A DNA stretch of 64,000 nt from a bacterium. GTDB taxonomy: Bacteria > SZUA-182 > DTGQ01 > JBLIRR01. The notes beneath the pieces are model-generated. The model was given only the letters and a program-made list of their open reading frames with translations, did no database searches and was not told where the DNA came from. The DNA is taken from NCBI GenBank assembly GCA_049472395.1, contig JBLIRR010000037.1, forward strand, positions 20-64,019, written 5' to 3'. The translations under genes and the position numbers were made by a program. This document shows, piece by piece, positions 4,279 through 21,350 of this stretch; the stretch's first letter is position 1; every line of letters starts with the position of its first letter.

Positions 4279-4920
4279 ATGTTTTCTTTATTAAAAAATG
4301 GGGGGTTTTTCATGTATATCATTCTGGCGGTTTCCATTGTCGCGCTGACTTTATTTTGTGAACGTATTCTATTTCTTTATGTGCGCCTTAAACTCAATAC
4401 GGACAAAGCATTACAAAAAATCCTGTTTTTCCTTGAAAAGCTGAATTATCGGGCAGCAATAGAGGAATGTACAAAGATAGAAAAACATCCTCTCGGCAGA
4501 ATCTTAAAGGCAGGGCTTTTAAAATCGGATAAAAAGGACAAAGAGATTGAACGTGCAATGGAAGAGAAGATTTTGAGGGAAATTCCTTTAATAAAGACAA
4601 GAATCAATTATTTGGCTCTTTTTGCCAATATTTCAACACTTTTGGGGCTATTAGGAACGATTATGGGTCTGATTACCGCCTTTCAAGGGGTAAGCAGTGC
4701 CAGCGCCGCCATGAAGCAGGAAATATTGGCAAGCGGTATATCAGTAGCAATGCTTACTACTGCTTTTGGTTTAATTGTTGCCATACCCTGTCTCATAGGC
4801 TATTACATCCTCAATAATAGAGGGGATTATCTAATCGACCAATTTGAGGAGAAGGCCCTCAGTCTCTTTAATATGCTCTCATCCTTAAAGAGAGAAAAAG
4901 GAGCGTTATGTCAAGATTAG
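4279..4920 (+). CDS. exbB: MotA/TolQ/ExbB-family proton-channel protein
   Basis: Three TM helices. Conserved TolQ/ExbB C-terminal block ...LALFANISTLLGLLGTIMGLITAF...AMLTTAFGLIVAIPCLIGYY. Strong RBS AAGGAGGGGG. Confidence 0.85.
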   Translation: MFSLLKNGGFFMYIILAVSIVALTLFCERILFLYVRLKLNTDKALQKILFFLEKLNYRAAIEECTKIEKHPLGRILKAGLLKSDKKDKEIERAMEEKILREIPLIKTRINYLALFANISTLLGLLGTIMGLITAFQGVSSASAAMKQEILASGISVAMLTTAFGLIVAIPCLIGYYILNNRGDYLIDQFEEKALSLFNMLSSLKREKGALCQD

Positions 4921-5411
4921 GAAAGCAACGGTCAAAGGGTATCGAGGAAATTGATATTGATATGGTCCCTATCATGAACATGTTTCTGGTGCTTATTCCG
5001 TTCTTGCTCATGTCTGCTGCTTTCTTTCATCTGAGAGCTATTAATACATCAGTCCCTGTGCTTGCTGAAGGCAAGGAAGGAGCCATTGGAAAAGCAGAAG
5101 AAAAGGTCACTGTGATTGTCGAAATAAAGGAAGATGCCCTTCACTTATCAACCATATCAGACTCAGTAAATGATATTGCGTTAAGTAAATTGGAAACCAG
5201 AATAGTCAAAGAAAAAGAGGATGAATATCCCCTCGACAAAATGGTTTTATGCCTCAGGAAAATCAAGGAAAGTTATCCGGCAAGCGATACGCTTATTTTA
5301 ATCCCTGACGGAATAGTACTCTATGAAACCATTATTCAAACAATGGATGTGGCTCGACAAACTGAAGAGGGACCTCTTTTCCCTAATGTAGTAATTTCAG
5401 GAAAAGTATAA
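4908..5411 (+). CDS. exbD: ExbD/TolR-family biopolymer transport protein (first of two)
   Basis: N-terminal block IDIDMVPIMNMFLVLIPFLL is the ExbD/TolR signature (single TM, conserved Asp). Overlaps the exbB stop, indicating an operon. Confidence 0.8.
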   Translation: MSRLGKQRSKGIEEIDIDMVPIMNMFLVLIPFLLMSAAFFHLRAINTSVPVLAEGKEGAIGKAEEKVTVIVEIKEDALHLSTISDSVNDIALSKLETRIVKEKEDEYPLDKMVLCLRKIKESYPASDTLILIPDGIVLYETIIQTMDVARQTEEGPLFPNVVISGKV

Positions 5412-5425
5412 AAGGAGTAACGCAC

Positions 5426-5911
5426 ATGGCACTTGGCAAGTTAAGGAAACGAAGGCAATTCGTGGCGCCTAAGCTTCAGATTACCTCAATGATGGATATG
5501 TTTACTATCATATTGATATTCCTCCTGTTCTCTTTCTCAAATAGGCCAGAAAGCATTCAATTTAATAAAGATTTAAAATTGCCCGAATCAGAAGCGAAAA
5601 TGGATTACAAGGACAATATAAAACTCATCCTCTCACGCTCGACTCTTCAATTGGAAAATAAAGTTGTTGCTGAAATAAAAGAGGGCAAAATTATAGGACT
5701 TAATCCGAGAAAGCTCAAGCAATCCAATCTCTATAGAGAACTCAAAGCCTATAGAAAGCAGGCAGATGCGTCAAACACTGATAAGGAGAGCAAAGAGGCG
5801 ATTTTATTTCTCTGCGATAAACGCCTCCCTTTTAAAACAATAAATAATATAGTCAAAACAGCAGCTATGGCAGGATTCCCTAATTTTCAATTTGGAGTAT
5901 TGAAAAAATGA
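5426..5911 (+). CDS. exbD: ExbD/TolR-family protein (second paralog)
   Basis: QITSMMDMFTIILIFLLF is the ExbD/TolR TM signature. The arrangement of one ExbB with two ExbD mirrors AglR/AglQ/AglS-type motors. Confidence 0.75.
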   Translation: MALGKLRKRRQFVAPKLQITSMMDMFTIILIFLLFSFSNRPESIQFNKDLKLPESEAKMDYKDNIKLILSRSTLQLENKVVAEIKEGKIIGLNPRKLKQSNLYRELKAYRKQADASNTDKESKEAILFLCDKRLPFKTINNIVKTAAMAGFPNFQFGVLKK

Positions 5912-6219
5912 AGTATGTAATTATTACCCTAATATTTATGTGTGCTGTGCAGTTTCCCCTGACATACACTGGAATACACTATGGTTCTGCATATGCGAAG
6001 AGTCAAAAACAGCAGAACACAAGCGAGAAGAATTTGCTCAATCGGATTGATTTTGGCAATTCATACATTATCGGACAAACGATAAAATCAGGGGCAGTCT
6101 ATCTTCTGCAAAGGAAAAAAAGTGAGATTAAAAGCATGCTCAAGTATCGCGAAGATTATCGCGAGGAGATTCTGGAAGATTTCTCCATTATTGACATGAA
6201 AATAAAACAAAAAGATTAA
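5908..6219 (+). CDS. Small secreted or membrane-anchored hypothetical protein, translationally coupled to exbD2
   Basis: ATGA start/stop overlap with the preceding gene. N-terminal hydrophobic segment MKYVIITLIFMCAVQFPL. Confidence 0.4.
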   Translation: MKYVIITLIFMCAVQFPLTYTGIHYGSAYAKSQKQQNTSEKNLLNRIDFGNSYIIGQTIKSGAVYLLQRKKSEIKSMLKYREDYREEILEDFSIIDMKIKQKD

Positions 6220-6227
6220 ATAGCATA

Positions 6228-8564
6228 ATGAATCAGGAACCTCAAAAACAGGGTTATGGAAAGCATACAACGGCGGGTCCGGGTATGCCTTCCACGGAAA
6301 GCCGAAGTTATATTACACAAATCTATGTTTTTAAGGATGAAGATTACTTAGGATGGGATTGTTTTGATAAAGAAACAATTTCCATCGGCCAAAGTGGTAA
6401 TGCAGACCTTGTGCTCAGTGGTGAGAATATTGCCGATATCCAAGCTCTTCTCTATTTTAAGGAGGGTCAGATAATCGTATCTGATGAAAGCCGCGATGGG
6501 AAACTCCGCGTAAATGGAAGGTATATCAAGACATTTATGCTGGGTCCCTTGGATTTTATAACTATAGGTCCCTATACCCTAAAAATAAAGATAAAGGAAA
6601 AAGTAGCCTCTGAGGGAGAAGCTCTCCCGATCGAGCAGTATACTCAACATGAGAGAATCTCGTCAAGCAGGATGCCATACAAAGAAGCCTCAATGTTAGA
6701 AGCAGAGGGTCAAAGTATTACTGCACATCCCATTATGGAAGAGTCTCCCCCTTATGATCATGGACCACAACAACATGACACACCAACCACACCATCTGAA
6801 GCCTCCTTTCGAGAGCAACAGGTGCCTATTCCTGATAGTGTGAGCAACGAGTGTCACACGACACCTGCGTGTGAAATTAAGGAGCCAGTAATGGAAACAC
6901 CTGATATGCCTATCTCAGAGCATACGAGTCACACTCCTTGGCAACAGAAACAAGAAATAGTTCCTGAAATACAAAGCAGTGGGCCTATCATACATGAGCC
7001 TGATACACAATGGCCAACATTCTCGGTTATGGAAGAAGACGATGAGGACGAGGATGACGAGGATGATATCGAGGGAGTATTTTCCTTAAGAGGAAAATTC
7101 CTTGATCACAGGAAAAGCGAAGATGGCCCGGTGAAAGGCGAGATAATGCTCGAGGTTGCAAAATTCAGGGGAGACAGGGTCATTGATGTCACCTATTTAC
7201 ATAAAAAGCAGAAGTATTACTGCAGGGTTGAGAAAGGCCGGTTTTGCCTTGCAGAATACAAAAATAGCCACGAGTGCTATTTTTATTTTAATGATCAGTT
7301 TAAAGGGAGCGTTCATAGCAGTACCTCCCCTCAATTAGGCACTGACCAATTATTAAATATTACAAATCTATATAATAGAAGAAAAAATATATACCGGGAC
7401 CTGCTTCCAGATGATGGTGATGCATGCATAAGTGATGGATATTATGAATATTTTTTGCGAAGGGTCACTCAGGGCCAAAGCCCTTATATCCCGGATCCTC
7501 CTAAAATAAAAAATAAATTCCCTAAGATTTTACTTCAATCTGCTCTCTTTCATCTTGCTGTGGTTTTTATAGCCGGTTTTTTAGTCTCACTTCCCAAAAT
7601 GCCGGACCCCAGCCAACCTGAATCACGCTTTGTGAAAATAGATACACGAAAATTATCTGAGATTAAAAAACAACCACCACCCATCAAAAAGCCGAAAAAA
7701 AGGACTGAGGTAAAAACAGCATCAAAGAAGGTGAAGACAGCACCAAAGAAGGTGAAGACAGCCCGGAAGAAGATAAAGACACAACCAAAGCCTCAAAAAA
7801 GCGCTTCCCTTAAACTACGACCGAAAACAAATCAACCACGATCGAGAACAAGAAAGGGAAGGATCTCCCGATCACCCCGTGCCGGAGGAGGAAGCGGCAA
7901 AGGAGGGAATGTCCTCAATCGTAATGTGAATCAGGTAGGGCTTTTGGGGGCTATTGGTATGAGCGATGGAGTGGGCATAAAAGCAAAAGAAGCACTCGCT
8001 GCAGTGACGAATCTTGATGCGGTAAAATCCTCCCATGCGAGTGAGGGAACTCTCAAGGTTGGCGGTATTGTGGGCAAACTAGGAAACGGCCAGATTGAAA
8101 TACCGAAGGCTGGCCTTGTGTCAACAAAGGGTTCGTCACAGGCCCTCAGAAGTGCCGGTGTGAAAGGAAAAGGGAGTGTTGCGGCCCTCGCAAAAGGAAG
8201 GACAGGACAAAAACAAGTAAAGGGCATGGTGAGTGCAAAACTTAATAGATCAGTGAATATACAGGGCGGAGGGATGAGCCGTGAAGCGGTGAAAAGGATC
8301 ATTGATCAGCATCTTGACGAAATAAGTTATTGCTATGAAAGCGCGTTGATTGCCGATCCCTCTATTATGGGAAAAATAGTATATGAATGGAAAATCTTAC
8401 TCTCGGGAAAAGTGGGAGAGATACGAATCAAAACCTCCTCGATTAAATCAAGCGACATCCATTCATGTATCAAGCAAGCGATAAAAAGCTGGCAGTTTCC
8501 AAAACCTAGAGGCTCGGAAGTCATTGTTTCATATCCGTTTATTTTCGATATCGTAGGATTTTAA
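6228..8564 (+). CDS. FHA-domain / single-TM / Lys-Pro-rich / TonB-C-like (AgmX-PglI-type C-terminal domain) energy-transducer-like protein
   Basis: Residues 40-120 have the FHA fold pattern (...ISIGQSGNADLVLSG...VSDESRDGKLRVNGRYI...). These are followed by an acidic run DEDEDDEDD, one TM helix ILLQSALFHLAVVFIAGFLVSL, and a Pro/Lys-rich periplasmic spacer with KKVKTAPKKVKTARKKIKT repeats. The C-terminal about 90 aa (EAVKRIIDQHLDEISYCYE...GKVGEIRIKTSS...IKQAIKSWQFPKP...VSYPFIFD) has the layout of a TonB-C/AgmX-PglI-type domain. Confidence 0.7.
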   Translation: MNQEPQKQGYGKHTTAGPGMPSTESRSYITQIYVFKDEDYLGWDCFDKETISIGQSGNADLVLSGENIADIQALLYFKEGQIIVSDESRDGKLRVNGRYIKTFMLGPLDFITIGPYTLKIKIKEKVASEGEALPIEQYTQHERISSSRMPYKEASMLEAEGQSITAHPIMEESPPYDHGPQQHDTPTTPSEASFREQQVPIPDSVSNECHTTPACEIKEPVMETPDMPISEHTSHTPWQQKQEIVPEIQSSGPIIHEPDTQWPTFSVMEEDDEDEDDEDDIEGVFSLRGKFLDHRKSEDGPVKGEIMLEVAKFRGDRVIDVTYLHKKQKYYCRVEKGRFCLAEYKNSHECYFYFNDQFKGSVHSSTSPQLGTDQLLNITNLYNRRKNIYRDLLPDDGDACISDGYYEYFLRRVTQGQSPYIPDPPKIKNKFPKILLQSALFHLAVVFIAGFLVSLPKMPDPSQPESRFVKIDTRKLSEIKKQPPPIKKPKKRTEVKTASKKVKTAPKKVKTARKKIKTQPKPQKSASLKLRPKTNQPRSRTRKGRISRSPRAGGGSGKGGNVLNRNVNQVGLLGAIGMSDGVGIKAKEALAAVTNLDAVKSSHASEGTLKVGGIVGKLGNGQIEIPKAGLVSTKGSSQALRSAGVKGKGSVAALAKGRTGQKQVKGMVSAKLNRSVNIQGGGMSREAVKRIIDQHLDEISYCYESALIADPSIMGKIVYEWKILLSGKVGEIRIKTSSIKSSDIHSCIKQAIKSWQFPKPRGSEVIVSYPFIFDIVGF

Positions 8565-8577
8565 GGAGTATGTAGTT

Positions 8578-9294
8578 ATGAAAAAATGGTGCATGTTTTA
8601 TATTATTATCATATTGCTTTTCATTACTGCTGTCAGAGGTTATGCAGCCGAGGATGCGGATAAGGATGAGCGCGTCTATGCTATACAAAATAAAGTCTTT
8701 CATCGCTATCATGAATTCGGCATAACCGCGGGCTACATTCCTGATGATGACTTTTTTGAGCTTTTTCCACTGGGTATTAATTACATTTTTCATTTTAATG
8801 ACCATTTTGCATGGGAAGTCGCCCGGGGTTATCTGGTAATGAAAGAAGAGAAGGATATTAAAAAGGACCTTGAAAAAGAATTTGGAGTCACACCATCAGA
8901 ATTCAGCAAGCCGAAATATATTGTCCACAGCCATCTTGTGTGGAAGCCTATGTATGGGAAAGACTCCATACTGAATAAGGGCGTTGTCAATCATGAGAGT
9001 TATTTTTACTTTGGAGGAGGGATGATAAGCTACGAGAGGCTTACGCTGCCTGGTGTGGATAATGCGCTCTCCCTGAGCGCCGGTTTTGGTATACGATATT
9101 TTATAAATAAATATACATGTATAAATTTTGAAATCCGTGACCTGGTTAACTTTAAGGAAGATGATACGGAAAATAATCTCTGGTGTGCCCTCTGTTTGGG
9201 ATTCCGTTTTAATTTGAGAGCACGAAAACCGGAAGATAATCCCACAATAAAGATATTAAACCACTATTTAAGAGAAGATGAAAATGAGAATTAA
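8578..9294 (+). CDS. Outer-membrane beta-barrel-like protein
   Basis: Signal peptide MKKWCMFYIIIILLFITAVRGYA. Alternating aromatic/hydrophobic strands (...LSLSAGFGIRYFI...LCLGFRFNL). Confidence 0.5.
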   Translation: MKKWCMFYIIIILLFITAVRGYAAEDADKDERVYAIQNKVFHRYHEFGITAGYIPDDDFFELFPLGINYIFHFNDHFAWEVARGYLVMKEEKDIKKDLEKEFGVTPSEFSKPKYIVHSHLVWKPMYGKDSILNKGVVNHESYFYFGGGMISYERLTLPGVDNALSLSAGFGIRYFINKYTCINFEIRDLVNFKEDDTENNLWCALCLGFRFNLRARKPEDNPTIKILNHYLREDENEN

Positions 9295-10747
9295 ACACGC
9301 AACCTGTGCTCTTATTTTCATATGGCTCCTCTGTATTGCCACGAGGGGCGACGCCATAGGTCCTGATCCTAACTCAAATGATCCCCTTTCATTTACAACC
9401 GGCTATAAGCTCTTTGAGAAAAAGAAGTTTGAGAAGGCGTGCCCTCACTTTTTCCGCTATATGAGTGTCAATTCCCCTGATATTGTAGATTATGAATGGG
9501 CGGAGTTTTTTTTCGGGATTTGCTTGAAAAAATGCGGCTATTCACATGCTGCTGTGGATATTCTCGCGCATCTGGTAACCCGAAAGCCCAATACAAAAAT
9601 CGTCTCATACTGCCTTGAGCTTTTTGAAGAAATCACCCGCACCCAGCCCTTTGATAATGAGCTTATTATTCATAGTGTGCTCTGTGACCAGGAATATGGA
9701 TTTGTGAATGAAGAGATTGGAGACTTTATCAACTTTTACCAGGGGGTCTATGACTGGAAACATGGCTTTTTCGAATGGGGAAATGAGCATTTTAAGAATA
9801 TTACCCCGGAGGGCTATTACTTTTATAAATATCTCTATCATAAAGCTCTCTACCGGGTATATCAGGATCACATTGATGATGCGATTGCCCTTCTAACCAA
9901 GATTTTAGAGGGCCCTTCTGAGGAAAAAGCGTTAAAAGACGATGCACGAAAAACATTGGCGCGCCTCTTGTATGAAAAGAAAGAGTATGATAACTCTGCC
10001 CTGAACTACCAGAAAATTACCAAATCTATTCTAGACCAGGCACAAAATCTTCTCGAGCGGGCGTGGGTCCAGTACCGTTTGGGATACTCAGAGAAGGCTA
10101 TGGGCTTGCTCTATGCCTTTGAGGCGCCGAGTTTTCAAAATTATTTTACACCTGAATATTTTATCTTAAAATCGCTTATCTATAAAGATGTATGTCACTA
10201 CAAACGGGCTTTGGATGTGGTCAAGGAATTTAACAAATATTATGGCGACTCGCTTGAGTCTATCTATAACCGCGGAAAAGCCGTTGACAATCCGGCCCTT
10301 TTATTGGTCCTTCTCAGTAAAAATCAGATCAATAAGACATGGAAATTGCTCCGTCTCGTTGAAAAGGAAAAGGAGAAATGCGCAGAATTCAAGAAAAAGG
10401 AGAAAGCTCTTTACGATTATCTTCTGAAAATATATGATCTGCAGATTGAAGAGAGCGCCGATTCTCTGAAAGAGCAGATAGAAAAAGAATTTGAAAAGAT
10501 TGCCAATACACTTTTGCAGTATGAAGAAGAGGCGCACCTCATGGAATATGAGATTGGAATTGATATGTATCAAAGGGTCTATCAATATCATTACTCTGAG
10601 GATAACACAAAAAAGAAAAAAGCAGGAGAGAAAATCGCGGTGTATCCCTTCCAGGGAGAATTCTGGAACAATGAATTGGCAGACTATAAGGTTACACTCC
10701 CGAATAAATGTGAATGTATCGAAGAATGGGACATATTTTTTCAATGA
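9278..10747 (+). CDS. Secreted TPR-like helical-repeat protein (GltE/AglT-like size and position)
   Basis: Signal peptide. About 480 aa of helical repeats with TPR-like Y/A/L spacing. Charged coiled C-terminus. Confidence 0.6.
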   Translation: MKMRIKHATCALIFIWLLCIATRGDAIGPDPNSNDPLSFTTGYKLFEKKKFEKACPHFFRYMSVNSPDIVDYEWAEFFFGICLKKCGYSHAAVDILAHLVTRKPNTKIVSYCLELFEEITRTQPFDNELIIHSVLCDQEYGFVNEEIGDFINFYQGVYDWKHGFFEWGNEHFKNITPEGYYFYKYLYHKALYRVYQDHIDDAIALLTKILEGPSEEKALKDDARKTLARLLYEKKEYDNSALNYQKITKSILDQAQNLLERAWVQYRLGYSEKAMGLLYAFEAPSFQNYFTPEYFILKSLIYKDVCHYKRALDVVKEFNKYYGDSLESIYNRGKAVDNPALLLVLLSKNQINKTWKLLRLVEKEKEKCAEFKKKEKALYDYLLKIYDLQIEESADSLKEQIEKEFEKIANTLLQYEEEAHLMEYEIGIDMYQRVYQYHYSEDNTKKKKAGEKIAVYPFQGEFWNNELADYKVTLPNKCECIEEWDIFFQ

Positions 10748-10766
10748 TCTTAAGAAACAATGTGAT

Positions 10767-13700
10767 ATGAGAAATACTATGAGAGGAAAAAAATTCTTAC
10801 TTTTACTATGTGCGTTTCTTATTCTCTCTCTGCCGATATCTTCCTCTGGTGCAAAAAAGGGACAGAGTTTCAAGGTATATCAATATGAAAAAAAGGACAA
10901 GGAAGAGGAGCAGAAGAAATTTATTGCCAAGCTCACAGAGGATAAGCAGAAGATAGAGATGGCCATTAAGAACACCAAGGCCCTGATTGATAAATCACGT
11001 GACAGGCCCTATCTGCCGGAGATTTATATTCGTCTTGCAGAGCTGTATATTGAAAAATCGCGTATTGTGTATTTTCTGCGTAAAACCCAATCGCCCAGTA
11101 CAGTAAACGCATTGAACTTTCTCGAATCTAACTCCTTGAAAAACCAGGCAATAGAAATCTATCAGCGCATATTAAACGATTTCCCGAAATTTGAGGAACG
11201 GGATAAGATCCATTTCTATTTGGCGCATGAATATAGAGAGCTTGCTGAGATTGATAAAATGGTTGAGCAATACAGGATAATTATTAAACAATATACACAC
11301 AGCTCCTATGTACCGGAGTCGTTCTTACTTTTAGGAGATTATTTCTTTGATAAGCAGGACCTTGAGATGGCAACTAAACATTACGAGGCTGTGCTTAAAT
11401 ATCCTGAAAGCTCTGCAATTGCTATTGCCCGTTATAAACTGGCATGGTGTCATATAAATGAGGCAGACTTTAAGAAGGCCCTTACGCTTTTCGAAGAATC
11501 GGTTCTCAGCGCACAGCCGGGTAAAGAACTGGATGTTGACACATATAAGAGAGTTGATATCCGGCTTGAATCACTTATCGACATGGCATACTGTTACTGT
11601 GAGGTTTATAAGGATGCAAAACCTGAGCAGGCAATAGCCTATTTTCAAAAATTTGCATGGTCAAGGCCGGTATACACCACTGTGCTTGAAAAACTCGCCT
11701 ATCGCTATCTGCTCAAAAAAAAGTGGAAAAAGGCTGCGGCAATCTATCGCCAGTTATCGATACTGCAGCATGATGTAGAGAAATTGTTGGAATATGCCCG
11801 CAAAATCTTTGAATGCGTCCAGTCTTTAGAAAGCTTTGAGGATGCGGACCAGGACATGGCAATCATTATCAAGGCGCTTCGCAAACAGAAATATTCCATA
11901 CATATACCTGAAGAAGAGAAAAAGAAAAACCTCAAAGACTATGAAATGTATGCGCGGGATATCGTCACGCACCTTCATCATAAGGCACGACATGCAAAAT
12001 CAAAAGAAGTCTTTAAGCGGGCTGCGGACTCTTATAAATTATATCTGGATTTTTTTAAGACGAGCCCGGTATACAAGGATATGGAAGCAAACTATGCTGA
12101 AGCGCTTTTCTCCGCACAAGAATATATGGAGGCGGGTAAACAATATGAAAAACTGGCTCTGAGAGAAAACGCACACAGTAAAAAGAAAAGGGAAGATCTC
12201 TATAGCGCTGTCCTTTCCTATTATGCTGCGCTTAAAAACAAAGAAAACCTCAATTACTATCAGATTGCTTACACACGAGCAGGCCTTCGGACAACGGGGA
12301 AAACTTATGCTGTAGAGTTTCCCAAGTCAAAGCAGGTGCCCAATGTCCTTTTTAATGTGGCATGGATCGCCTATGATGCGGGCAAGTATGATGATGCAAT
12401 TGCTGAATTCTCCCAGTTTGTCGATCGCTATCCCAGGGGCAAAGAAGCAAAGGCTGCAATTCATCTCATCCTTGACGCATTTCATCTTAAAGAAGATTAT
12501 GAGGGCCTCGTCACTTACGGACAAAAAATCCTCAGGAATAATAAAATTACTGATAAAAAAATAAGGGCCGAAGTAGCAGAAATCGTGAAGTCAGCTGAAT
12601 CAAAAGTGATATGCAATCTCACCTTGAATGCGGTAAATGACTGGGAAAGGGGCAAAGACAATATTATGGATTTTGTCGAACAGCATGCATCCTCCTCTAT
12701 GGGAGAGCAGGCCCTTGTTGCGCTTATTCTCCCGAGCAAGGAGAAGGGGGATTTAGAGACCATGATTTCCGCAGGCACTACCTTAATCAAAAATTTCCCC
12801 TCCTCCCCGAAAATCGAAGACACATTGAATATCATTATCGACTCTTCCCTTAAAAGCTCTCAATTCAGGCTCCTCGCACAATATCTTGAAGTTTTCGGGC
12901 GTAAGCTGAGAAAACATAAGAACGCGGTAAGCTTTCTTTATCAGGCTGCCCAGATCAGGGAAAATCTTGGCCAGTATGATCTTTCAAATAAAGATTATAA
13001 GCTGATTCTCACACGCGTTAAAAAAGGAAGCCCTCTGCATGGTGAGATCATACTTGCCATGGCGCATAATGCAGAGCACATGTCGAATAATAATCTCGCA
13101 CGTGGCATTTTAATCAACAACAGAGGCTATCTTTCATCCACAGGGAAAATAAAGGCAGCTGCCAAAATTGCGGATTACTATTTTCAAGATAATCGATATA
13201 AACAGGCCGAACGATTCAGAAAAATAGCCAATGGAGGGTATACACCCTCTATGGCAAAAAAGGATAGTGAGATTAATTCTGCAATGGCTCAAATGGAGTA
13301 TAGTGCTCTTCAAAGATCAAATAGGAGATATATGAAGCTTCAATTAAAGGATCATATAGATAATCAAATCGTCACTGCCAAGGCGAAGCTTTTAGAGCAC
13401 CTGGAAAATGGATATCATACAGTGATTAAATACCAGGTGCCTGAATGGGCGCTTAATGCCTGCTACCGCCTCTATGAAGTAAACAAGGAATTTGCCCGTT
13501 TTCTGAAAGAGAGCCCACTTCCACAATTGCCCCCTGAGCAGGAAAAGCAGTATGTGGAGCTTATCAATCAAAAGGCTCAGGGCTATAACGATCAAGCAGA
13601 GCAATATTTAAAGACGAGCGTTGAGCAAGCGCGAAAATGGGAAGTATGCGATCCTAAGCTTTCGCAGTATGTCATAAATCCATCAGAAGGCTCCCGCGCA

Positions 13701-14189
13701 ACTCCTTTTTCAAGAAATAATGCATCAATTAAGATCGGAATCCAATTCCTCAAAGATGATGTGTTAAAAAGGATGCACTATAAGCTGCTGCAAGGCTCTG
13801 ATAATATGAATTTGTTAAGTGATCTTGCAAAGGCATATATAGAAAGAAGAGATTTCAGGCAGACCATCCTTATCGCTCAAAAAGCATTGGAAGAGATAAA
13901 AGCCAAAAAAGACCCTTTAAAGGCAACAGTCTATAATTCATTGGGAGTAGCGTATCTTTATAAGGCTGATGATACCATGGCCAAGGATGCCTTTAAAAAG
14001 GCCCTTGATATCGACTCAAAAAATATCGGGGCACGGATTAATCTTGCAAGTCTTTATCAACATTATGGTCATAGAGATAAAGCGAAAAGTCTTTATAAAA
14101 CCCTTCCAAACAGTGGAGTGGTGGAGGAATCAGAAGAGATGATTCATCCCCACGCACGGGAGTTATATTATGCCTATATCAATGATTAA
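10767..14189 (+). CDS. Large secreted TPR-repeat protein (about 1140 aa; GltD/AgmU-like)
   Basis: The ORF track's start at 10491 overlaps the upstream gene. The in-frame ATG at 10767 (or 10779) gives a signal peptide MRGKKFLLLLCAFLILSLPISSSGA. Numerous TPR units follow (e.g. ...AIARYKLAWCHINEADFKKALTLFEES..., ...ATVYNSLGVAYLYKADDTMAKDAFKKALDIDSKN...). Confidence 0.7.
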   Translation: MRNTMRGKKFLLLLCAFLILSLPISSSGAKKGQSFKVYQYEKKDKEEEQKKFIAKLTEDKQKIEMAIKNTKALIDKSRDRPYLPEIYIRLAELYIEKSRIVYFLRKTQSPSTVNALNFLESNSLKNQAIEIYQRILNDFPKFEERDKIHFYLAHEYRELAEIDKMVEQYRIIIKQYTHSSYVPESFLLLGDYFFDKQDLEMATKHYEAVLKYPESSAIAIARYKLAWCHINEADFKKALTLFEESVLSAQPGKELDVDTYKRVDIRLESLIDMAYCYCEVYKDAKPEQAIAYFQKFAWSRPVYTTVLEKLAYRYLLKKKWKKAAAIYRQLSILQHDVEKLLEYARKIFECVQSLESFEDADQDMAIIIKALRKQKYSIHIPEEEKKKNLKDYEMYARDIVTHLHHKARHAKSKEVFKRAADSYKLYLDFFKTSPVYKDMEANYAEALFSAQEYMEAGKQYEKLALRENAHSKKKREDLYSAVLSYYAALKNKENLNYYQIAYTRAGLRTTGKTYAVEFPKSKQVPNVLFNVAWIAYDAGKYDDAIAEFSQFVDRYPRGKEAKAAIHLILDAFHLKEDYEGLVTYGQKILRNNKITDKKIRAEVAEIVKSAESKVICNLTLNAVNDWERGKDNIMDFVEQHASSSMGEQALVALILPSKEKGDLETMISAGTTLIKNFPSSPKIEDTLNIIIDSSLKSSQFRLLAQYLEVFGRKLRKHKNAVSFLYQAAQIRENLGQYDLSNKDYKLILTRVKKGSPLHGEIILAMAHNAEHMSNNNLARGILINNRGYLSSTGKIKAAAKIADYYFQDNRYKQAERFRKIANGGYTPSMAKKDSEINSAMAQMEYSALQRSNRRYMKLQLKDHIDNQIVTAKAKLLEHLENGYHTVIKYQVPEWALNACYRLYEVNKEFARFLKESPLPQLPPEQEKQYVELINQKAQGYNDQAEQYLKTSVEQARKWEVCDPKLSQYVINPSEGSRATPFSRNNASIKIGIQFLKDDVLKRMHYKLLQGSDNMNLLSDLAKAYIERRDFRQTILIAQKALEEIKAKKDPLKATVYNSLGVAYLYKADDTMAKDAFKKALDIDSKNIGARINLASLYQHYGHRDKAKSLYKTLPNSGVVEESEEMIHPHARELYYAYIND

Positions 14190-15546
14190 AAAAAACAGCA
14201 GAATTTTTATCTGTCTCTTTGCCATGATCATTTCTCTGCACCTCCTTTGTGGCTGTGGGGGAGAAACTGGGGATACAGGTGACACAAGCACCCAGGGAGA
14301 CACGTCCTCTGAAGGCTGGCAACGCTGTATAGTAAAAGATATTGATGCAGGAGGTATGCTCGCCCCTCATATTCATGCGGCAGCAGATAGCAATGACCGC
14401 GTTCATGTTGTCTATTTTTGCGATACCGATGAAAGCGATGATGAGAGCAATCCCTATACAGTTCATTATCTTCTTTTCGATATAGCGGCCGCACGCTCCG
14501 GAGCAGAGGACGCGAACACAGTGCTTGCAGAGGAGACCATTATCGATATAGATAATTGCAGGGATCTTTCATTTGTCCTTGATAGCACCAATACTCCGCT
14601 TGTGGCCTATCGGGGAGGTGAGCTGCGAGAGTGCGGTTCACCGCAGCAATCAGATGCCATGTTCAGTCTCAAGGAAAATACGAGCTGGACAGAATATACC
14701 GGCGCAATAGGCGATGTTGAGAGAAATCCGGTATTTACCGATGGGCTTGCGGGCGCTGATACCTCGGTTGCCTTTGACTCTACCGGTGATATTCATCTGT
14801 GCTATCAATTCTTCTATGAAGGGTGTGATTCAATGAACTATAACTACCCAGACCTGTGTTATGTGAAAAAGGAGCGTTCATCCCTCACCACCAGTGCAAC
14901 CGAGGAGACAGTCGAGGGGAATGTGTATAATGAAGCAGGCACTGTTGCCCTAGAGCAAAATTCCATGGGTAAATATTGTGCGATCACAACAGATGCAGAG
15001 GATAGTCCTGTTATCTTTTATTATGCCGAGTTTACAGAGTCAAACAGGGGGCTCCGTGTTGCGCGGCGAGGAAACAACGGGCAGTGGGAGAGTGAATGGC
15101 TTGAAGATAACTGCGAAATAGGCGCCATAAGTGCGGCACATTCTGATGCGAGCGATGATTTCGCCGTTGCTTACTATGTAAAAGAATATACTGACGGCAG
15201 CGATTTTGTGCACTGTTTAAAGTATGCCCGGGGCAATTTCTCCTCCTGGCAGACAACCCTGGTTGATGAAAGCTCCTGGTGTGGCAACTATTGCAGCCTT
15301 GCCTTTGATTCATCAGGCAATCCCGCCATTGCGTATTATGAGTATAAGACGCACAGCGGCTATGATCGTCTGAACCTTAAACTTGCCCGCTATGACGGGA
15401 CTTCCTGGAGCAAAGAAACAGTTGCTGAAAGCGGTGACATCGGCCTTTACAATACGCTCTGGTTCGATACAAATGATAGAGCGCTGATCTGTACCTATTC
15501 GAATACAACCACGACGATATATATCTATTATGAATATTATGAATAA
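14170..15546 (+). CDS. Lipoprotein with repeated beta-blade-like modules
   Basis: Lipobox LLCGCGG after the signal peptide. Recurrent beta-strand motifs (VHVVYFCDTD, PVIFYYAEFTE, FAVAYYVKEYTDG, PAIAYYEYKTH). GGGAG RBS. Confidence 0.6.
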   Translation: MPISMIKKNSRIFICLFAMIISLHLLCGCGGETGDTGDTSTQGDTSSEGWQRCIVKDIDAGGMLAPHIHAAADSNDRVHVVYFCDTDESDDESNPYTVHYLLFDIAAARSGAEDANTVLAEETIIDIDNCRDLSFVLDSTNTPLVAYRGGELRECGSPQQSDAMFSLKENTSWTEYTGAIGDVERNPVFTDGLAGADTSVAFDSTGDIHLCYQFFYEGCDSMNYNYPDLCYVKKERSSLTTSATEETVEGNVYNEAGTVALEQNSMGKYCAITTDAEDSPVIFYYAEFTESNRGLRVARRGNNGQWESEWLEDNCEIGAISAAHSDASDDFAVAYYVKEYTDGSDFVHCLKYARGNFSSWQTTLVDESSWCGNYCSLAFDSSGNPAIAYYEYKTHSGYDRLNLKLARYDGTSWSKETVAESGDIGLYNTLWFDTNDRALICTYSNTTTTIYIYYEYYE

Positions 15547-15622
15547 TTTTTCTCGCAAAGAGTAATCTTTACATTACAATCATTGGATTGGAGGATGCGG
15601 TACCATGAGGGGTTCTCACAAT

Positions 15623-15662
15623 TCACTATTAAGCTCTTTCATTTTCATATGCGTGTCTATGA
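15623..15662. repeat. About 40-bp intergenic repeat, copy 1 (CACTATTAAGCTCTTTCATTTTCATATGCGTGTCTATGAA)
   Basis: Near-identical copy at 29468..29507 (CACTATTAAGCTCTCTCATTTTCATATGCGTATCTATGAA). Both copies lie in non-coding DNA. Confidence 0.6.
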
Positions 15663-16296
15663 ACGATAAGGATTTGGAAAAAGAACGTTCCATACTGCGC
15701 AAACTACAGTGGTATGATTAATAGGTATAGGATATAATCAAGGGGAGGATGTCCTGTCTTTCTTATTTAACTGATAGAAATTGCTTTTCTGAGCCTGAGA
15801 GGAATCCCATTGTTATCTTTTTGCACACTGGTTTGTAAGTGTATTTGTGGGTGCTCTCGGCTCCCATCGTTTAATTTCGCACTTATCGGCGCTCTTTTTG
15901 TTGAAAAGATGCGGGTGCGGCGCTGCAGTATTTCACAAAGGAAGATGACGGGATAAGGATTTTTGGCAGCACGTCATAGAATTTATAGGCCTTCGATTTT
16001 GGTTTTTTGGGTGGACTCAACTAATGAGAACAAAGCCCAACATCCCTGAGGTTTTCCTTATGCCTTCCCTTTATCTTTGTCCAACAGTACTTTTCAAGGA
16101 TATAAAATCTTCGTAAAACATAGCTGAAATCCATTTTTATATCTCACCAATGAATACCTGGCTCTCATATCAAAAACACTGGAATGAATCTTGTATCAAA
16201 TAATAAAAAATGGCAAGGATTGTATTCCAGAAGAGAAATGCCATTTAACTTTAAAATTAAAGTATCAAAGTATTAAAAGCAGGAATTTGCTTATTT

Positions 16297-19263
16297 ATGA
16301 ACCAGACAAATAAAAGGGCAAGACAAATGGGATGGAAGCTTATTAATAAAGGATCTAAGGAAGGCAATAGAATGGGATTCGGAGGAGGAGGAGTCTATAC
16401 CCCGCTCTTTTTATGGACAAAAAGGCTCTTAGGTGTATGCTTTTTCATTTTATCATTGCTTTTAAATCCAGTCCTAAGTGATTGTATGAAGACAAAGTTG
16501 CGGCATATAAACGAAAGAGTGAAATACTTACATCAGGATAATTATAATACTGATATTATTAAATCTAAGGCTGCCATGAATATTGATCCAAATGATTATC
16601 TCGCCCGACTTAAACTGGGAGAGATGTATTTTCAATGTGATCAACTGGATAATGCTGACAGGGAATTGCGGGAGGTCATTGAGAAAAATCCTGGAACCGC
16701 TTATGCGCATTTTTTGTTAGCATCTATTCATTTAGAAAGAAAGGAATATAAGGAGGCCCTGGCAGAGGCGAAACTTTCCCTTGAATTGGTTAAAGATGCC
16801 CACCAGGAGAGAACCGTAAAGCCTAAAAAGGCACAGGTGCAAAATCTTTTAGGTCTGATCCATATGGAGATGGAAGAACTCAATCTAGCGCGATTACATT
16901 TTGATAGTGCCATAGAGTTAGAACCAAACAATGTTCATTTTTTGATCAATCAGGGATTTCTGTTCATGGAAATGAGAAATTATAAGGATGCAAAAGGGAA
17001 ATTTGAAACGGCCCGAGATCAGGCACCGGAAGAGGCCAAGCCCTATTTGGCATTGGGGTGGTATTACTATTTTCTAAATGCATACGAGGAGGCAGAAATC
17101 CATTACCGCAAAGCGCTTGCGAAAGACCCGGATTCGCCTCAGGCTATGATCGCTTTGGGAGAAATCATGAATTGTCAGGGGCGGTTTGACAAAGCAATAG
17201 CGCAAGGAGAGATGATTATTAAAAGATTCCCTCATGATCCGTTTGGGTATCAAATAAGAGGAGGGGCATATTTAGCAGAAAATCACTATAACGAAGCAAT
17301 TTTAGACCTCTCGGAAGCTGTAAAGCTGGCTCCTGAAGCTGTGAATTCCCGTTATCTTTTAGCATTAGCTTACCACAAGATTGAGCAAAGGAATCGGAGC
17401 ATGAGATTGCTTGAGGAGGTTGTGACTCTTAATCCTGAACACAGCGCAGCGCATAAATTGCTGGCAGAATTGAATCTTGAGCTTAAGAAATACGAGACGG
17501 CTATAAAGAATGCACACAAGGCCCTTAATTTAACCCCTAATAGTCCTTATGCGCATAATATTTTGGGTCTTATTTATATGGGCAAAGGTGAGCCGGATAG
17601 AGGGATGGATGAGCTTCAAAAGGCGCTGGCGCTTGATCCTAATTTTGGCATGACCTATCAAAATCTGGCCTCTTTTCATACAATGACGGAGCGGAAGGAT
17701 TATGCCATCAAGGCATATCAATCTGTTATAGAGATAGATCCGAACAAGCTGGATTTTTATGTGCCATTAGTCTTAACCTATCTGGAGAAGAATGAATCTG
17801 AGAAAGCACGTCAGATTTGTGTGAAGGCTCTCGAATCCGGAGGCAGACAGGAGGTATTTTATAATCTCTTGGGATTGGTTTATATGAAACAGGGCACATT
17901 GGATAAAGCGAGGGAAAACCTGAAGAAGGCATTTTGCGTCAACTCTGCATTTCTCACTGCACAATTTAATCTTGCGAAACTGGACCTCATGGAGAATAAG
18001 CCTGAGGAGTCCATTAAGAGGTTGAAGAGCATTTTAGAACAGGATTCTGATAATATTAACGCGTATATCGGGTTATTAGCAATTTATTCGGAAATCGGTG
18101 CCCAAGAAGAAGAAATAAAGAACCTGCGGGCCATTCTTGAGATCGATCCGAAACACTCCTTTGCCTTTTCTCAATTGTCAAAGATTTATAGTAATAACAA
18201 AGATTTCTATTTGCTGATAAAATTGGCCAAAAGTTACATTTCCGTTGTGCCTGATTCAAGATTGGCACATACTATTTTAGGGAATGCTTATCTCGGAACC
18301 AAGAAATATGCACTTGCCATTTCTGAATTTGAAACATTGGTTAAGATAGATCCAGGGGATCTTTCTATACAAAGAGCTTTGATCTATACATACACTCTTA
18401 GCAAGGAATATGATAAGGCACACGCACTGGTGGATAATATTCTCTCTCAAGCCCCGGATAAAGCATCCGCGTTCCTAAACCACATGGCTGAGTATTTTTT
18501 AAATGATGGGTATGTCAATGAGGCTATCAATTATTATAACTGGGCTTTGAGGAAAACTCCGGGCAATGTAGAGACATATTTGGGGCTTTCATCAGCTTAC
18601 TGGATTTTAGGTCAGCCTGAAGAAGTGATTAATATATTAAAGAAAGGGATTGAAAGAATGCCTAAGTCTTTGGATTTGAGGATGTCCTTGGCCAGTATCT
18701 ATTTTGATTTAAATCAACCTGATTATGCCATAGTTCAATATCAATATGCGCTTGACAAAATAGACCCTGATAACAGTGTTGTTCATCTTTATCTGGCCAG
18801 CAGTTACATGCTAAAAAAGGATGATGAAAAGACAGAGTATTATTATAAAAGAGCTATTCAGCTCGATCCAAATAATTTTAGGGCATGTAATGACCTGGCC
18901 TGGTTTTATGCCGATAAAGGCAAAGATTTGGATAATTCGCTCATACTTGCGCAGAAAGCAGGCAGATTATCTCCCAATAATCCAGATATTATAGATACAA
19001 TTGGCTGGATATATTTTAAGATGGAAGAATATGATCAGGCTGTAAACAGATTTAAGCAAGCTAAAGCGCTAAAAGAAAATAGTCCTTCCATAAGATATCA
19101 TCTGGCATTGGTATTAAGTCAGATTGGGGAGAACGAAGAGGCCATGAATGAGTTAAATTGGGCGTTATCCATTAACCAGGATTTTTCTGAGAGGGAAGAT
19201 GCCCGGAATTTACTTAAAAAATTAAAAAAGCAAAACAAGAGCATTCAAAGTCTGAAATACTAA
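16297..19263 (+). CDS. Membrane-anchored giant TPR-repeat protein (988 aa)
   Basis: One N-terminal TM helix LLGVCFFILSLLLNPVL, then more than 20 canonical 34-aa TPR units (W/LG/Y/A/F/A/P pattern throughout). The start could also be a downstream ATG (MGWKL... or MGFGG...). Confidence 0.7.
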   Translation: MNQTNKRARQMGWKLINKGSKEGNRMGFGGGGVYTPLFLWTKRLLGVCFFILSLLLNPVLSDCMKTKLRHINERVKYLHQDNYNTDIIKSKAAMNIDPNDYLARLKLGEMYFQCDQLDNADRELREVIEKNPGTAYAHFLLASIHLERKEYKEALAEAKLSLELVKDAHQERTVKPKKAQVQNLLGLIHMEMEELNLARLHFDSAIELEPNNVHFLINQGFLFMEMRNYKDAKGKFETARDQAPEEAKPYLALGWYYYFLNAYEEAEIHYRKALAKDPDSPQAMIALGEIMNCQGRFDKAIAQGEMIIKRFPHDPFGYQIRGGAYLAENHYNEAILDLSEAVKLAPEAVNSRYLLALAYHKIEQRNRSMRLLEEVVTLNPEHSAAHKLLAELNLELKKYETAIKNAHKALNLTPNSPYAHNILGLIYMGKGEPDRGMDELQKALALDPNFGMTYQNLASFHTMTERKDYAIKAYQSVIEIDPNKLDFYVPLVLTYLEKNESEKARQICVKALESGGRQEVFYNLLGLVYMKQGTLDKARENLKKAFCVNSAFLTAQFNLAKLDLMENKPEESIKRLKSILEQDSDNINAYIGLLAIYSEIGAQEEEIKNLRAILEIDPKHSFAFSQLSKIYSNNKDFYLLIKLAKSYISVVPDSRLAHTILGNAYLGTKKYALAISEFETLVKIDPGDLSIQRALIYTYTLSKEYDKAHALVDNILSQAPDKASAFLNHMAEYFLNDGYVNEAINYYNWALRKTPGNVETYLGLSSAYWILGQPEEVINILKKGIERMPKSLDLRMSLASIYFDLNQPDYAIVQYQYALDKIDPDNSVVHLYLASSYMLKKDDEKTEYYYKRAIQLDPNNFRACNDLAWFYADKGKDLDNSLILAQKAGRLSPNNPDIIDTIGWIYFKMEEYDQAVNRFKQAKALKENSPSIRYHLALVLSQIGENEEAMNELNWALSINQDFSEREDARNLLKKLKKQNKSIQSLKY

Positions 19264-19292
19264 ATTTTCCATCATTCGGCCATAATTTTCAG

Positions 19293-19553
19293 TTGTTGAA
19301 ACTGCTGAAGATAATGCCTTATCAAAAGTACAAATTTTCTTCGATCGATTCATATCGAGCGATGATTTTACACCATATGAATAACAAGACGTTATCGAAA
19401 GTAAAAAGGTGTAATTTATCCTGTGAAGCCATCGGCGCGAGGACATGCGCTGTAGATGCCTATGATCAAGAGGTGATCGACCATCTCTTAGGTATCGACG
19501 GAAAGGATGAGTTCACCATTTATCTTGCCCCTGGGGGAAAGGTGGCGACATAG
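19293..19553 (+). pseudogene. Remnant resembling the C-terminus of a nitroreductase-family gene
   Basis: The 86-aa ORF ends ...LSCEAIGARTCAVDAYDQEVIDHLLGIDGKDEFTIYLAPGGKV, which resembles a nitroreductase C-terminus. There is no room for the N-terminal two-thirds of a full gene. Confidence 0.3.
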
Positions 19554-20992
19554 CCGAGTGATCGCAACCTCGCTTTGGTCTTCCTATCAATAATTATATA
19601 CGGGGAAGAGGAGGATGAGACGGCGGAATGACCGCCATAATGACGCACTGCGCACTCCAGTCTTCTCATCATCTCTTGTCTCATAGCCTGATATTCTTTT
19701 TGAAAAAAAAGATTATTTTCTTCATGAGTATCCTTCGCCAAATCGTATAATTCATGGTAGCCGTCACTGCTCCATATTAATTTCTTATTATCATGGATGA
19801 TACTTCTGAGTTGTCGTTTGAATTTCCGAATATTCTTGTTTTTTCTATCCTCTTCTTTAAAACATCGCAATGCTTGTTCGGGATAATAATACTCGCAGAA
19901 TACAATCTCTTCCTCCCCTCCCCTCTCTTTGAATAAATCATGTCCTTGAAAAAAATAATCATCGACACTCACATTCGCTCTCTTTAAGAGTGTAGGGAAT
20001 ATATCGGTTAATTGGACCGGAGCATATTCCTTTGAAGGACCATCAATGAGTTGCGGATCATGAATAATCAAGGGGATGCGTACTGCAGGTTCATAGAGGC
20101 AAAATACATGATCAACCAGATTATGATCCCCGATATTTTCTCCATGGTCTGAGGTTACTATAAACATAGTATTTTCCCACAGATTTCTCTTCTTGAGTTC
20201 TGTGATTATTTTCCCAATATAATAATCCACGTAAAGTATTTCTGCATCATAGAGTTTCTTCAGATGTGTGAGTTCTGCGTCTGAAAATTGTATCCTTCCG
20301 AGTAAATAATCTTGCCACCTGTTCGATTCACACGAAAGGATCGAATCTTGTAAAAACTGATTATAAAATTGTTGAGAGGAATCATAAGGAGCATGAGCTT
20401 CAATCAAATTAATAAAGATAAAGAAAGGTTTATTCTTATCCCTCTGTCTTAAGGACCGTTTCAGCAGACTAAATGCACTATTTTCTTCTGAAATCATGCA
20501 AGACAAAAGCAACCAAAAATCTTTTTTCCATGTCTCGTAATAGGTTGAAAATCCTTGATGGAAATTATACGGTTTTCCAAGCATTGGATTTTCTACAATG
20601 CCAATGGTCTCATAGCCTTCGCATGAGAGTACTTCTGCTAAGGTTGTTAATTGATCGCTCATTACCCAATATTCCTGTGATGTCTTATGGGAAATTGTAT
20701 AAAGACCCGTAAAAAGTGATGCATGTGCCGGCGAGGTCCAGCAGCTCGTTGAATAGGCATTGTAATATACTCGTGAGTTTCTTATGAGTTCATTTAAATG
20801 GGGCGTTGTTTCTCGCGAATATCCATAACATGATAAATGATCTTTGCGGACTGTATCCATAACAATCAGCATTATATTCGGTCCATCATTTTTTGCGATG
20901 AGACAATTTTTTTCCACAATTTTAAAAAGAATAATCACTGATATGCATGCTATGAGAGCGATTGTCCACAGTTTATTAGTAAATTTTTTCAT
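19520..20992 (-). CDS. Membrane-anchored alkaline-phosphatase-superfamily (sulfatase-like) enzyme
   Basis: N-terminal TM. Metal-site motifs IMLIVMDTVRKDH and VTSDHGENIGDH. The sulfatase signature position reads WTSPAH instead of C-x-P-x-R, so a Thr/Ser nucleophile is more likely than formylglycine (more LtaS/EptA-like than true sulfatase). Confidence 0.7.
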   Translation of the reverse strand: MKKFTNKLWTIALIACISVIILFKIVEKNCLIAKNDGPNIMLIVMDTVRKDHLSCYGYSRETTPHLNELIRNSRVYYNAYSTSCWTSPAHASLFTGLYTISHKTSQEYWVMSDQLTTLAEVLSCEGYETIGIVENPMLGKPYNFHQGFSTYYETWKKDFWLLLSCMISEENSAFSLLKRSLRQRDKNKPFFIFINLIEAHAPYDSSQQFYNQFLQDSILSCESNRWQDYLLGRIQFSDAELTHLKKLYDAEILYVDYYIGKIITELKKRNLWENTMFIVTSDHGENIGDHNLVDHVFCLYEPAVRIPLIIHDPQLIDGPSKEYAPVQLTDIFPTLLKRANVSVDDYFFQGHDLFKERGGEEEIVFCEYYYPEQALRCFKEEDRKNKNIRKFKRQLRSIIHDNKKLIWSSDGYHELYDLAKDTHEENNLFFQKEYQAMRQEMMRRLECAVRHYGGHSAVSSSSSPYIIIDRKTKARLRSLGYVATFPPGAR

Positions 20993-21235: not shown

Positions 21236-21350
21236 AAATTCCGTCATAAAATAATATCAATGACTTATATAGCTGCCAATATAGACTGAGAAAATTCCGA
21301 TAGATATAATGGAAATTAAAAATATTATTTAAACCATTTTAAGGGGAGTT

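Follow-up and report, generated by a model that had tools for sequence, protein, structure and literature searches.

A 64,000-nt stretch of the bacterial contig JBLIRR010000037.1 (assembly GCA_049472395.1; the whole stretch is called the window hereafter) was found to encode, at 6228-8564 on the forward strand (ATG start, stop at 8564), a 778-aa protein that is very probably a GltG/PglI-family, TonB/TolA-like force transducer of an Agl-Glt-type envelope-spanning machine, the operon for which extends from ~4279 to 15546. This GltG-like protein displayed, in order, an FHA fold, an acidic run, a beta-sandwich, a single transmembrane (TM) helix, a basic spacer, a Gly-rich segment and a TonB-C-like tail (Table 1). 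The initial annotation of this DNA had proposed the open reading frame (ORF) and five of these features (FHA domain, acidic stretch, TM helix, Lys/Pro-rich spacer with a repeat, and TonB-C-like tail). All were present and their order was given correctly, while two conserved modules had been missed, i.e., the cytoplasmic beta-sandwich (residues ~300-415) and the Gly-rich periplasmic segment (residues ~550-683). The architecture had also been called unusual; it looks odd and is real, but it is already known, having been published for GltG/PglI of Myxococcus xanthus (PMC3169522; PMC11761067). NCBI names exactly this protein 'AgmX/PglI C-terminal domain-containing protein'.

GltG of M. xanthus is bitopic, with an FHA domain in the cytoplasm and a Pro-rich, TonB-like part in the periplasm (Luciano 2011, PMC3169522). 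A model published in 2025 ordered it as an N-terminal FHA domain, a central FHA-like domain, a TM helix, a disordered linker of ~124 residues, a segment wrapping GltD, and a TonB C-terminal domain that accepts a beta-strand of GltF (PMC11761067). The protein encoded in the window followed the same plan, with an N-terminal FHA fold, a beta-sandwich preceding the TM helix, a disordered linker and a TonB-C-like tail. It resembled M. xanthus GltG (PglI, MXAN_4867) and NfsG in its cytoplasmic FHA fold and pre-TM beta-sandwich, its disordered basic and Pro-containing linker, the conserved segment that follows, and its AgmX/PglI tail, as well as in the position of its gene beside those of a TolQ/ExbD-type motor and of GltF-, GltC- and outer-membrane (OM) barrel-like proteins.

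Domain architecture of the GltG-like protein

The C-terminal tail belonged to the AgmX/PglI type, scoring 106.2 bits against a cut-off of 40 on NF033768 (E 7e-31; residues 684-773 on model positions 2-91 of 92). Scores on the classical TonB_C models were below threshold (TIGR01352, 14.6 vs 27.1 bits; PF03544, 17.0 vs 24.6 bits), and a profile of the tails of close orthologues gave weak but consistently TonB matches (E 0.05 to 1). The alignment was then broadened from close orthologues to distant relatives, many of them named 'TonB family protein' at source and carrying PF03544. In this broadened set, 30 of the 36 sequences matched PF03544 (best E 7e-10), and the profile matched 13 solved TonB C-terminal domains in the PDB (E 5e-5 to 0.1). 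The model of residues 286-778 likewise retrieved TonB C-terminal domains as its top Foldseek matches (H. pylori, P. aeruginosa, FusB, E. coli; probability 1.0, E from 2e-3), with domain III of TolA ranking below them. Since the broadened profile and the fold both pointed to TonB C-terminal domains, the tail was considered a divergent TonB-C homologue.

Mean column identity of the tail within the family reached 77%, with two invariant cysteines, C702 and C747. Both were kept in close orthologues and in the distant 'TonB family' relatives, and both motifs were detected by regular expression in 43 of 57 locus-derived sequences. This invariance across close and distant relatives suggests a periplasmic disulfide, which classical TonB C-terminal domains are not known to have. 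A tail-domain profile search aimed at M. xanthus GltG retrieved short fragments from metagenomes for the most part and nothing from Myxococcus; it was the source of the 'TonB family' relatives in the broadened alignment.

Two faint matches linked the tail to VIT proteins. The C-terminal ~70 residues of a 915-aa VIT and VWA protein (33377-36124, reverse strand) weakly matched the broadened tail profile when searched against the window ORFs (16.4 bits, E 7e-5), so that the window may hold a second TonB-C-like tail. The GltG-like tail itself faintly matched the NCBIfam 'after-VIT domain' NF033769 (E 0.011).

Residues 433-457 were the sole Kyte-Doolittle window above 1.6 in the protein. Within this TM helix, S438 and H442 were invariant in the family alignment, and the Ser-x3-His spacing was found in 56 of 57 homologues. 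The helix thus carried the Ser-x3-His of the SHLS type, with the later Leu/Ser positions out of exact register; it is through SHLS that TonB and TolA bind their motors (PMC12204202). GltG and NfsG bind the motor protein AglR in two-hybrid assays (PMC3169522; PMC3858216).

The periplasmic spacer (residues 486-560) was composed of 27% Lys and 12% Arg, with a net charge of +28. It included KKVKTAPKKVKTARKKIKT at residues 500-518, encoded by a 21-nt tandem repeat of 4.0 copies (7708-7790; Tandem Repeats Finder (TRF) score 96), the repeat unit being KKVKTAP and variants of it. Basic, Pro-containing linkers were a trait of the family (median fraction of Lys plus Arg 0.26, of Pro 0.135) and varied in length and composition; that of the window protein was unusually basic (Lys plus Arg 0.40 vs the family median of 0.26). 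The following Gly-rich segment was unstructured when modelled alone with AlphaFold2 (AF2), and fell within a colinear alignment of the protein to the GltG model NF033760 (residues 471-774 on model positions 373-646). Its counterpart in GltG (residues 428-543) was modelled wrapping GltD (PMC11761067).

On the cytoplasmic side, the N-terminal domain adopted an FHA fold. The AF2 model of residues 27-125, with a pLDDT score (predicted local distance difference test) of ~90, superposed on the FHA domains of OdhI and GarA (TM-score 0.82-0.85, Foldseek E 6e-7), the best 50 Foldseek matches in the PDB were all FHA domains, and PscD was among the fold matches. A family profile of 17 members matched the solved FHA domains of GarA, OdhI and Rv1747 at E 1e-7; among window proteins, it matched the GltG-like protein only. 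Profile matches had been predicted by the initial annotation for both ends of the protein: the C-terminal one was clearly above the NF033768 cut-off, whereas the FHA domain of the single sequence was marginally below the Pfam gathering threshold (PF00498 on residues 51-114, 20.0 vs 20.7 bits, E 9e-4), a threshold exceeded by three orthologues (30.7, 29.1 and 24.6 bits). The best Pfam match of the domain, also sub-threshold, was Yop-YscD_cpl (residues 48-120, 27.9 vs 33.2 bits).

The acidic run was kept across the family (median longest Asp/Glu run of 9 residues). It was followed by the second cytoplasmic domain, whose folded core (residues ~300-415 in the AF2 model) lay directly N-terminal to the TM helix, in the position of the 'central FHA' of GltG (PMC11761067). 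Its Foldseek matches were weak and of SMAD/FHA type (7dvq_X, E 0.029; IRF9 IAD, E 0.05; kanadaptin FHA, E 0.39), and a profile of this domain retrieved only chance antibody matches among PDB sequences.

In many orthologues, the cytoplasmic linker joining the FHA domain to the acidic run contained a further conserved module, ~70 aa long, which was missing from the window protein. This module was carried by P0002, P0004 (two copies), P0005, P0008, P0012, P0015, P0017, P0018 and P0022 (alignment A1, columns ~440-560), had the consensus '...RYKLVFEG...VK..L..LL......LFSG..VVIKK..D...A......FE.AGA.C.IE' and gave no Pfam match.

Operon context

The GltG-like gene was the fifth of a nine-gene operon on the forward strand, in which neighbouring genes were separated by 8 to 14 nt or overlapped by 4 to 20 nt (Table 1). 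Genes for a TolQ-like protein, two ExbD-like proteins, a GltF/CglF-like protein, an OMP_myx_plus barrel and a GltC-like protein were linked to it in a single operon, joining a motor to glt-type components; the GltF/CglF-like, OMP_myx_plus and GltC-like matches favour the assignment to Glt.

The first gene, overlapping the second by 13 nt, scored 81 bits on the tolQ model TIGR02796, below its cut-off. Both ExbD-like subunits possessed an Asp in their TM segment, N-terminal in subunit 1 ('DIDMVPIMNMF') and within 'TSMMDMFTIIL' in subunit 2. The GltF-like protein, with a hydrophobic N-terminus, matched NF033764 at E 3.9e-6 (26.8 bits vs a cut-off of 90); its gene overlapped the preceding one by 4 nt and ended 8 nt before the GltG-like gene. 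The GltC-like protein matched NF033756 with 87.4 bits (E 9e-25), where the equivalog cut-off is 450.

The mechanically called ORF of the large TPR protein began at TTG 10491, inside the GltC-like gene; its likely start is ATG 10767 or 10779, after which a signal peptide follows (MRGKKFLLLLCAFLILSLPISSSG). The last conserved gene of the operon encoded a lipoprotein-like protein with a BNR_4-type match, whose N-terminus ended in 'LLCGC'; having no TPR, it was not considered GltE-like. The operon was followed by 750 non-coding nucleotides (15547-16296) and then by an unrelated PrsT-like TPR gene.

Table 1. Segments of the GltG-like protein and genes of its operon (nucleotide positions within the 64,000-nt window)
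Feature	Position	Strand	Evidence
TolQ/ExbB/MotA-family channel subunit (AglR-like stator)	4279..4920	+	Pfam MotA_ExbB 104.7 bits; syntenic in 49 loci
ExbD/TolR-family subunit 1 (AglQ/AglS-like)	4908..5411	+	Pfam ExbD 46.3 bits; syntenic in 51 loci
ExbD/TolR-family subunit 2 (AglQ/AglS-like)	5426..5911	+	Pfam ExbD 41.3 bits; syntenic in 53 loci
Small exported GltF/CglF-like protein, 103 aa	5908..6219	+	NF033764 gliding_CglF; syntenic in 55 loci
Probable GltG/PglI-family TonB/TolA-like bitopic transducer, 778 aa	6228..8564	+	NF033768, fold, architecture
N-terminal cytoplasmic FHA-fold domain, residues 28-126	6309..6605	+	AF2 model, Foldseek, family profile
Acidic run DDEDEDDEDD, residues 271-280	7038..7066	+	9-nt tandem repeat, 3.2 copies (TRF)
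Second cytoplasmic beta-sandwich, residues 286-430	7083..7517	+	pLDDT ~90, ~10 strands, conserved in 55 loci
Single TM helix with S438-x3-H442, residues 433-457	7524..7598	+	Hydrophobicity, invariant residues
Lys/Arg/Pro-rich periplasmic spacer, residues 486-560	7683..7907	+	Composition, pLDDT <50 (predicted disordered)
Gly-rich periplasmic segment, residues 550-683	7875..8276	+	Many invariant columns, G560 to G682
AgmX/PglI-type, TonB_C-like C-terminal domain, residues 684-778	8277..8561	+	NF033768, broadened profile, Foldseek
OM beta-barrel protein (GltA/B/H-like)	8578..9294	+	TIGR04565 OMP_myx_plus 80.2 bits vs cut-off 60; syntenic in 55 loci
GltC-like exported TPR protein	9278..10747	+	NF033756 gliding_GltC; syntenic in 55 loci
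Large exported TPR protein, ~1140 aa	10767..14189	+	TPR and YbgF-like matches; syntenic in 53 loci
Lipoprotein-like protein, 458 aa	14170..15546	+	Pfam BNR_4 33.5 bits; syntenic in 45 loci

Distribution in related genomes

The GltG-like family is common: a HMMER search at E <=1e-30 recovered 500 representatives of clusters at 50% identity, many of them full length. Scanning one genome per species yielded 60 related loci, nearly all in metagenome-assembled genomes (MAGs) of Desulfobacterota (Desulfobacterales, Desulfatiglandales, Desulfomonilia, Desulfobulbia) and Nitrospirota (Thermodesulfovibrionia). Others were labelled Bacteriovoracaceae, and Desulfosudis oleivorans and Desulfocicer vacuolatum were carriers with a species name.

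The order of the nine genes was kept in essentially every locus with enough flanking sequence (~45-55 loci). Upstream of the operon, no further conserved gene was found in the flanks of ~8-10 kb at ~60 related loci. Downstream, ~39 loci shared three more conserved genes, two of which encoded proteins with thrombospondin type 3 (TSP3) repeats, one of ~270 aa (TSP_3 repeat) and one of ~550 aa (bacterial TSP3 repeat) (examples are L017:19751-20563, L013:20036-21688 and L035:20588-21508). A literature search, which was not exhaustive, found no paper linking Glt-like systems to sulfate reducers, cable bacteria or Desulfonema, and 'Desulf' does not occur in the main text of Luciano 2011 (PMC3169522).

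Comparison with known systems

In M. xanthus, the corresponding genes are split over the G1, G2 and M1 clusters, while those of the window lay in one operon. Unlike M. xanthus, this operon encoded no equivalents of GltE, GltI, GltJ or GltK; it contained a BNR-like lipoprotein instead, and TSP3-repeat proteins accompanied it in most relatives. The hosts also differed, being anaerobic Desulfobacterota and Nitrospirota known from MAGs.

GltG is part of a 'core complex' comprising aglRQS and gltC, D, E and G, which forms a single operon in non-gliding bacteria (PMC3169522). The window operon resembled the core complexes of non-gliding Gammaproteobacteria, Geobacter and Fibrobacter in its single-operon organization, its Tol/Exb-type motor, its GltG-like transducer and its exported TPR proteins. 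It added GltF-like and OM-barrel genes, which the 2011 study placed in a 'Group A' confined to Myxococcales and Bdellovibrionales (PMC3169522).

With TonB and TolA, the GltG-like protein shared the S-x3-H TM helix, a linker spanning the periplasm, a C-terminus of TonB/TolA fold and adjacent ExbB/ExbD-type genes. Unlike them, it had two folded domains within a cytoplasmic part of ~430 residues, a tail that was sub-threshold on TonB_C and carried two invariant Cys, and an operon without receptor, TolB or Pal. TonB linkers consist of Glu-Pro/Lys-Pro repeats, unlike the Lys-rich linker found here.

The type III secretion system (T3SS) proteins of the MxiG, YscD/PscD and PrgH family also combine a cytoplasmic N-terminal FHA fold with a single pass through the inner membrane in an envelope-spanning machine. 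Their phosphothreonine motifs are likewise degenerate, and their docking is phospho-independent (PMC3162421). Their periplasmic parts are unrelated to that of the GltG-like protein, which had no secretion-system context.

Proposed mechanism and alternative explanations

In the proposed mechanism, the S-x3-H face of the TM helix would bind the outer side of a TolQ-like pentamer housing both ExbD-like subunits, and the pre-TM beta-sandwich would sit at the cytoplasmic face of this motor. Proton flow through the motor would move the transducer, whose disordered, basic Lys/Pro-rich spacer would cross the periplasm and the peptidoglycan, and whose Gly-rich segment and tail would grip the large TPR protein, probably together with a beta-strand from the GltF-like protein. 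Both the GltC-like protein and the OM barrel would thereby be coupled to the motor and receive its movement, driven by the proton-motive force. The N-terminal FHA domain would act as a phospho-independent dock for a cytoplasmic partner.

Such a machine may serve the surface transport of proteins or polymers, or gliding. The Agl motor drives gliding with Glt and the transport of spore-coat polymer with Nfs, and core complexes of non-gliders have no assigned function (PMC3858216). That the operon drives Myxococcus-like adventurous gliding on surfaces is unlikely, although its homology to Agl-Glt parts extends to the 'Group A'-type GltF-like protein and OM barrel, Bdellovibrio with expanded core complexes glides (PMC3169522), and the TSP3-repeat proteins of related loci could be surface adhesins. 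Core complexes occur in many bacteria without documented gliding and are insufficient for motility (PMC3169522), and the paralogous Nfs system assembles the spore coat rather than moving the cell (PMC3858216). Moreover, family scans and the synteny survey revealed no equivalents of GltI, GltJ, GltK, CglB, MglA or AglZ in the operon, and even the TSP3 genes were absent from the window.

The FHA domain had been read by the initial annotation as implying phosphothreonine-dependent regulation or, alternatively, protein recruitment. Under the former, the activity or assembly of the transducer would be set by Ser/Thr phosphorylation, with the FHA domain recognizing a phosphorylated Thr of a partner or kinase substrate. 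The fold is genuine, several orthologues exceeded the Pfam FHA threshold, and part of the binding residues persisted among 37 aligned family members (Arg of GR in 6, Ser of SxxH in 11, His in 23, Asn of NG in 5). Yet GR, SxxH and NG are crucial for phosphothreonine binding (PMC3162421), and all four residues were replaced in the window protein (G54-Q55, A69-D-I-Q72 and D90-G91 at the respective positions). The FHA domain of M. xanthus GltG matches Pfam at E 5e-13 (PMC3169522), compared with 9e-4 and degenerate motifs here. The suggested search for Ser/Thr kinases, made by regular expression over the ORFs of the 64-kb window, detected neither Hanks-kinase nor PP2C nor canonical FHA motifs, and no kinase or phosphatase gene was conserved in the flanks of the related loci.

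Phosphothreonine control is thus improbable, being unsupported given the degenerate motifs, the absence of kinase and PP2C motifs from the window and the lack of a conserved flanking gene. Phospho-independent docking is more likely, judging from these residues, and has a precedent in MxiG, a single-pass T3SS protein whose FHA fold does not bind phosphothreonine (PMC3162421). The T3SS model Yop-YscD_cpl, which outscored the FHA model of Pfam, and the PscD fold match agree with this. Protein recruitment is accordingly the better half of the earlier proposal: the published partner suggested for GltG is the TPR protein GltI, rather than phospho-regulation (PMC11761067), but the nine-gene operon contained no GltI-like gene.

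It is quite improbable that the protein is the TolA of a divergent Tol-Pal-type system for OM integrity or division constriction. Such a role would suit the first gene of the operon, which scored best on TolQ models, the sub-threshold YbgF/CpoB matches of the TPR proteins (54.9 bits), the presence of TolA domain III among the lower fold matches of the tail, and the comparison of GltG with TolA in the 2025 model paper (PMC11761067). However, family scans found no TolB or Pal/OmpA-type match in any operon gene, two distinct ExbD/TolR paralogues were present as in AglQ/AglS, the tail was strong on the AgmX/PglI model and was better fitted by TonB C-terminal domains than by TolA, and TolA has no large cytoplasmic domains.

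A classical TonB paralogue that energises TonB-dependent receptors (the BtuB-like one at 48630-50537, for example) is very improbable despite the TonB C-terminal fold, the SHLS-type motif and the location of that receptor behind a cobalamin riboswitch in the same window. The TonB_C models stayed sub-threshold, the operon contained no receptor gene, the only receptor in the window was encoded on the opposite strand at a distance of 40 kb, and strict synteny in ~55 loci was with Glt-type genes rather than with receptors. The view of the initial annotation that this is not a classical TonB was borne out by these scores, by the missing receptor context and by the large cytoplasmic domains.

Several observations weigh against assigning the protein and its operon to the GltG/PglI family and the Agl-Glt type. 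On the GltG equivalog model NF033760, the protein scored 105.4 bits against a cut-off of 650; this was more than it scored on the GltJ model (105 vs 46 bits), but at 105 vs 650 bits the protein is a distant family member that is not orthologous to the motility protein of M. xanthus. The central domain was not similar in sequence to the N-terminal FHA domain (hhalign probability 0.2%), and its weak FHA-likeness (Foldseek E 0.03-0.4) rests on fold matches and on the literature, since profile comparisons found nothing. Pfam and NCBIfam scans showed neither a GltE-like TPR lipoprotein in the operon nor homology of the large TPR protein to GltD; this protein resembles GltD/AgmU in its size, its position and its TPR content. 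The TSP_3-repeat, TSP3-repeat and third downstream genes of the relatives had no tblastn match anywhere in the 64-kb window, which may contain an incomplete copy or one that uses other partners. As to phospho-independent docking, some relatives retained GR or SxxH and may bind phosphorylated partners, and the kinase search was a regular-expression search confined to the window. Finally, the contacts between the proteins and the coupling of energy were inferred from work on M. xanthus.

Other features of the window

The PrsT-type TPR protein of the PEP-CTERM system encoded downstream of the operon (16297-19263; 988 aa, 448 bits, above cut-off) was considered for a link to it, which was rejected, the gene not being syntenic in related loci. 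It opens a region (16297-24806) in which it is followed by a sulfatase gene on the opposite strand and by a sulfatase-TPR fusion, likewise non-syntenic with the Glt-like operon elsewhere.

The cobalamin riboswitch (RF00174, 108 bits; 50689-50885, reverse strand) was located upstream of the TonB-dependent receptor, after which came CobT-like DBI_PRT, CobQ, CobS and CobU, in an ordinary operon for B12 uptake and remodelling (44731-50885, reverse strand). A sigma-54-dependent activator with a partial N-terminal CHASE2 domain was encoded at 52232-53731 on the forward strand, its ORF being perhaps truncated or mis-started. At the end of the window (59456-64000, reverse strand), an RHS-repeat protein of >1514 aa displayed teneurin-type NHL beta-propeller repeats; as 64000, the last base, is where the listed ORF starts, the gene may extend past the window.

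Significance for the GltG family and its anaerobic hosts

The gene can be annotated with confidence as encoding a GltG/PglI-family TonB-like transducer instead of an odd TonB. Finding GltF-like and OM-barrel parts beyond Myxococcales and Bdellovibrionales extends the range given for them in the 2011 study. The loss of the phosphothreonine-binding residues in this branch argues that the FHA domain of GltG is a docking module in general.

A broader reading is tentative, possible rather than probable: the operon, together with the TSP3-repeat proteins and the third gene found in most relatives, may constitute a widespread, uncharacterised proton-driven apparatus for surface transport or gliding in strictly anaerobic Desulfobacterota and Nitrospirota. 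If so, it would represent a self-contained, single-operon focal-adhesion machine of the Myxococcus type, in which TSP3-repeat proteins would take the place of CglB as cargo at the surface, with a phospho-blind FHA domain as the cytoplasmic anchor. The compact and strictly conserved single-operon form of Agl-Glt is common in anaerobic sulfate reducers and Nitrospirota and offers a simpler system in which to approach the ancestral role of the 'core complex'.

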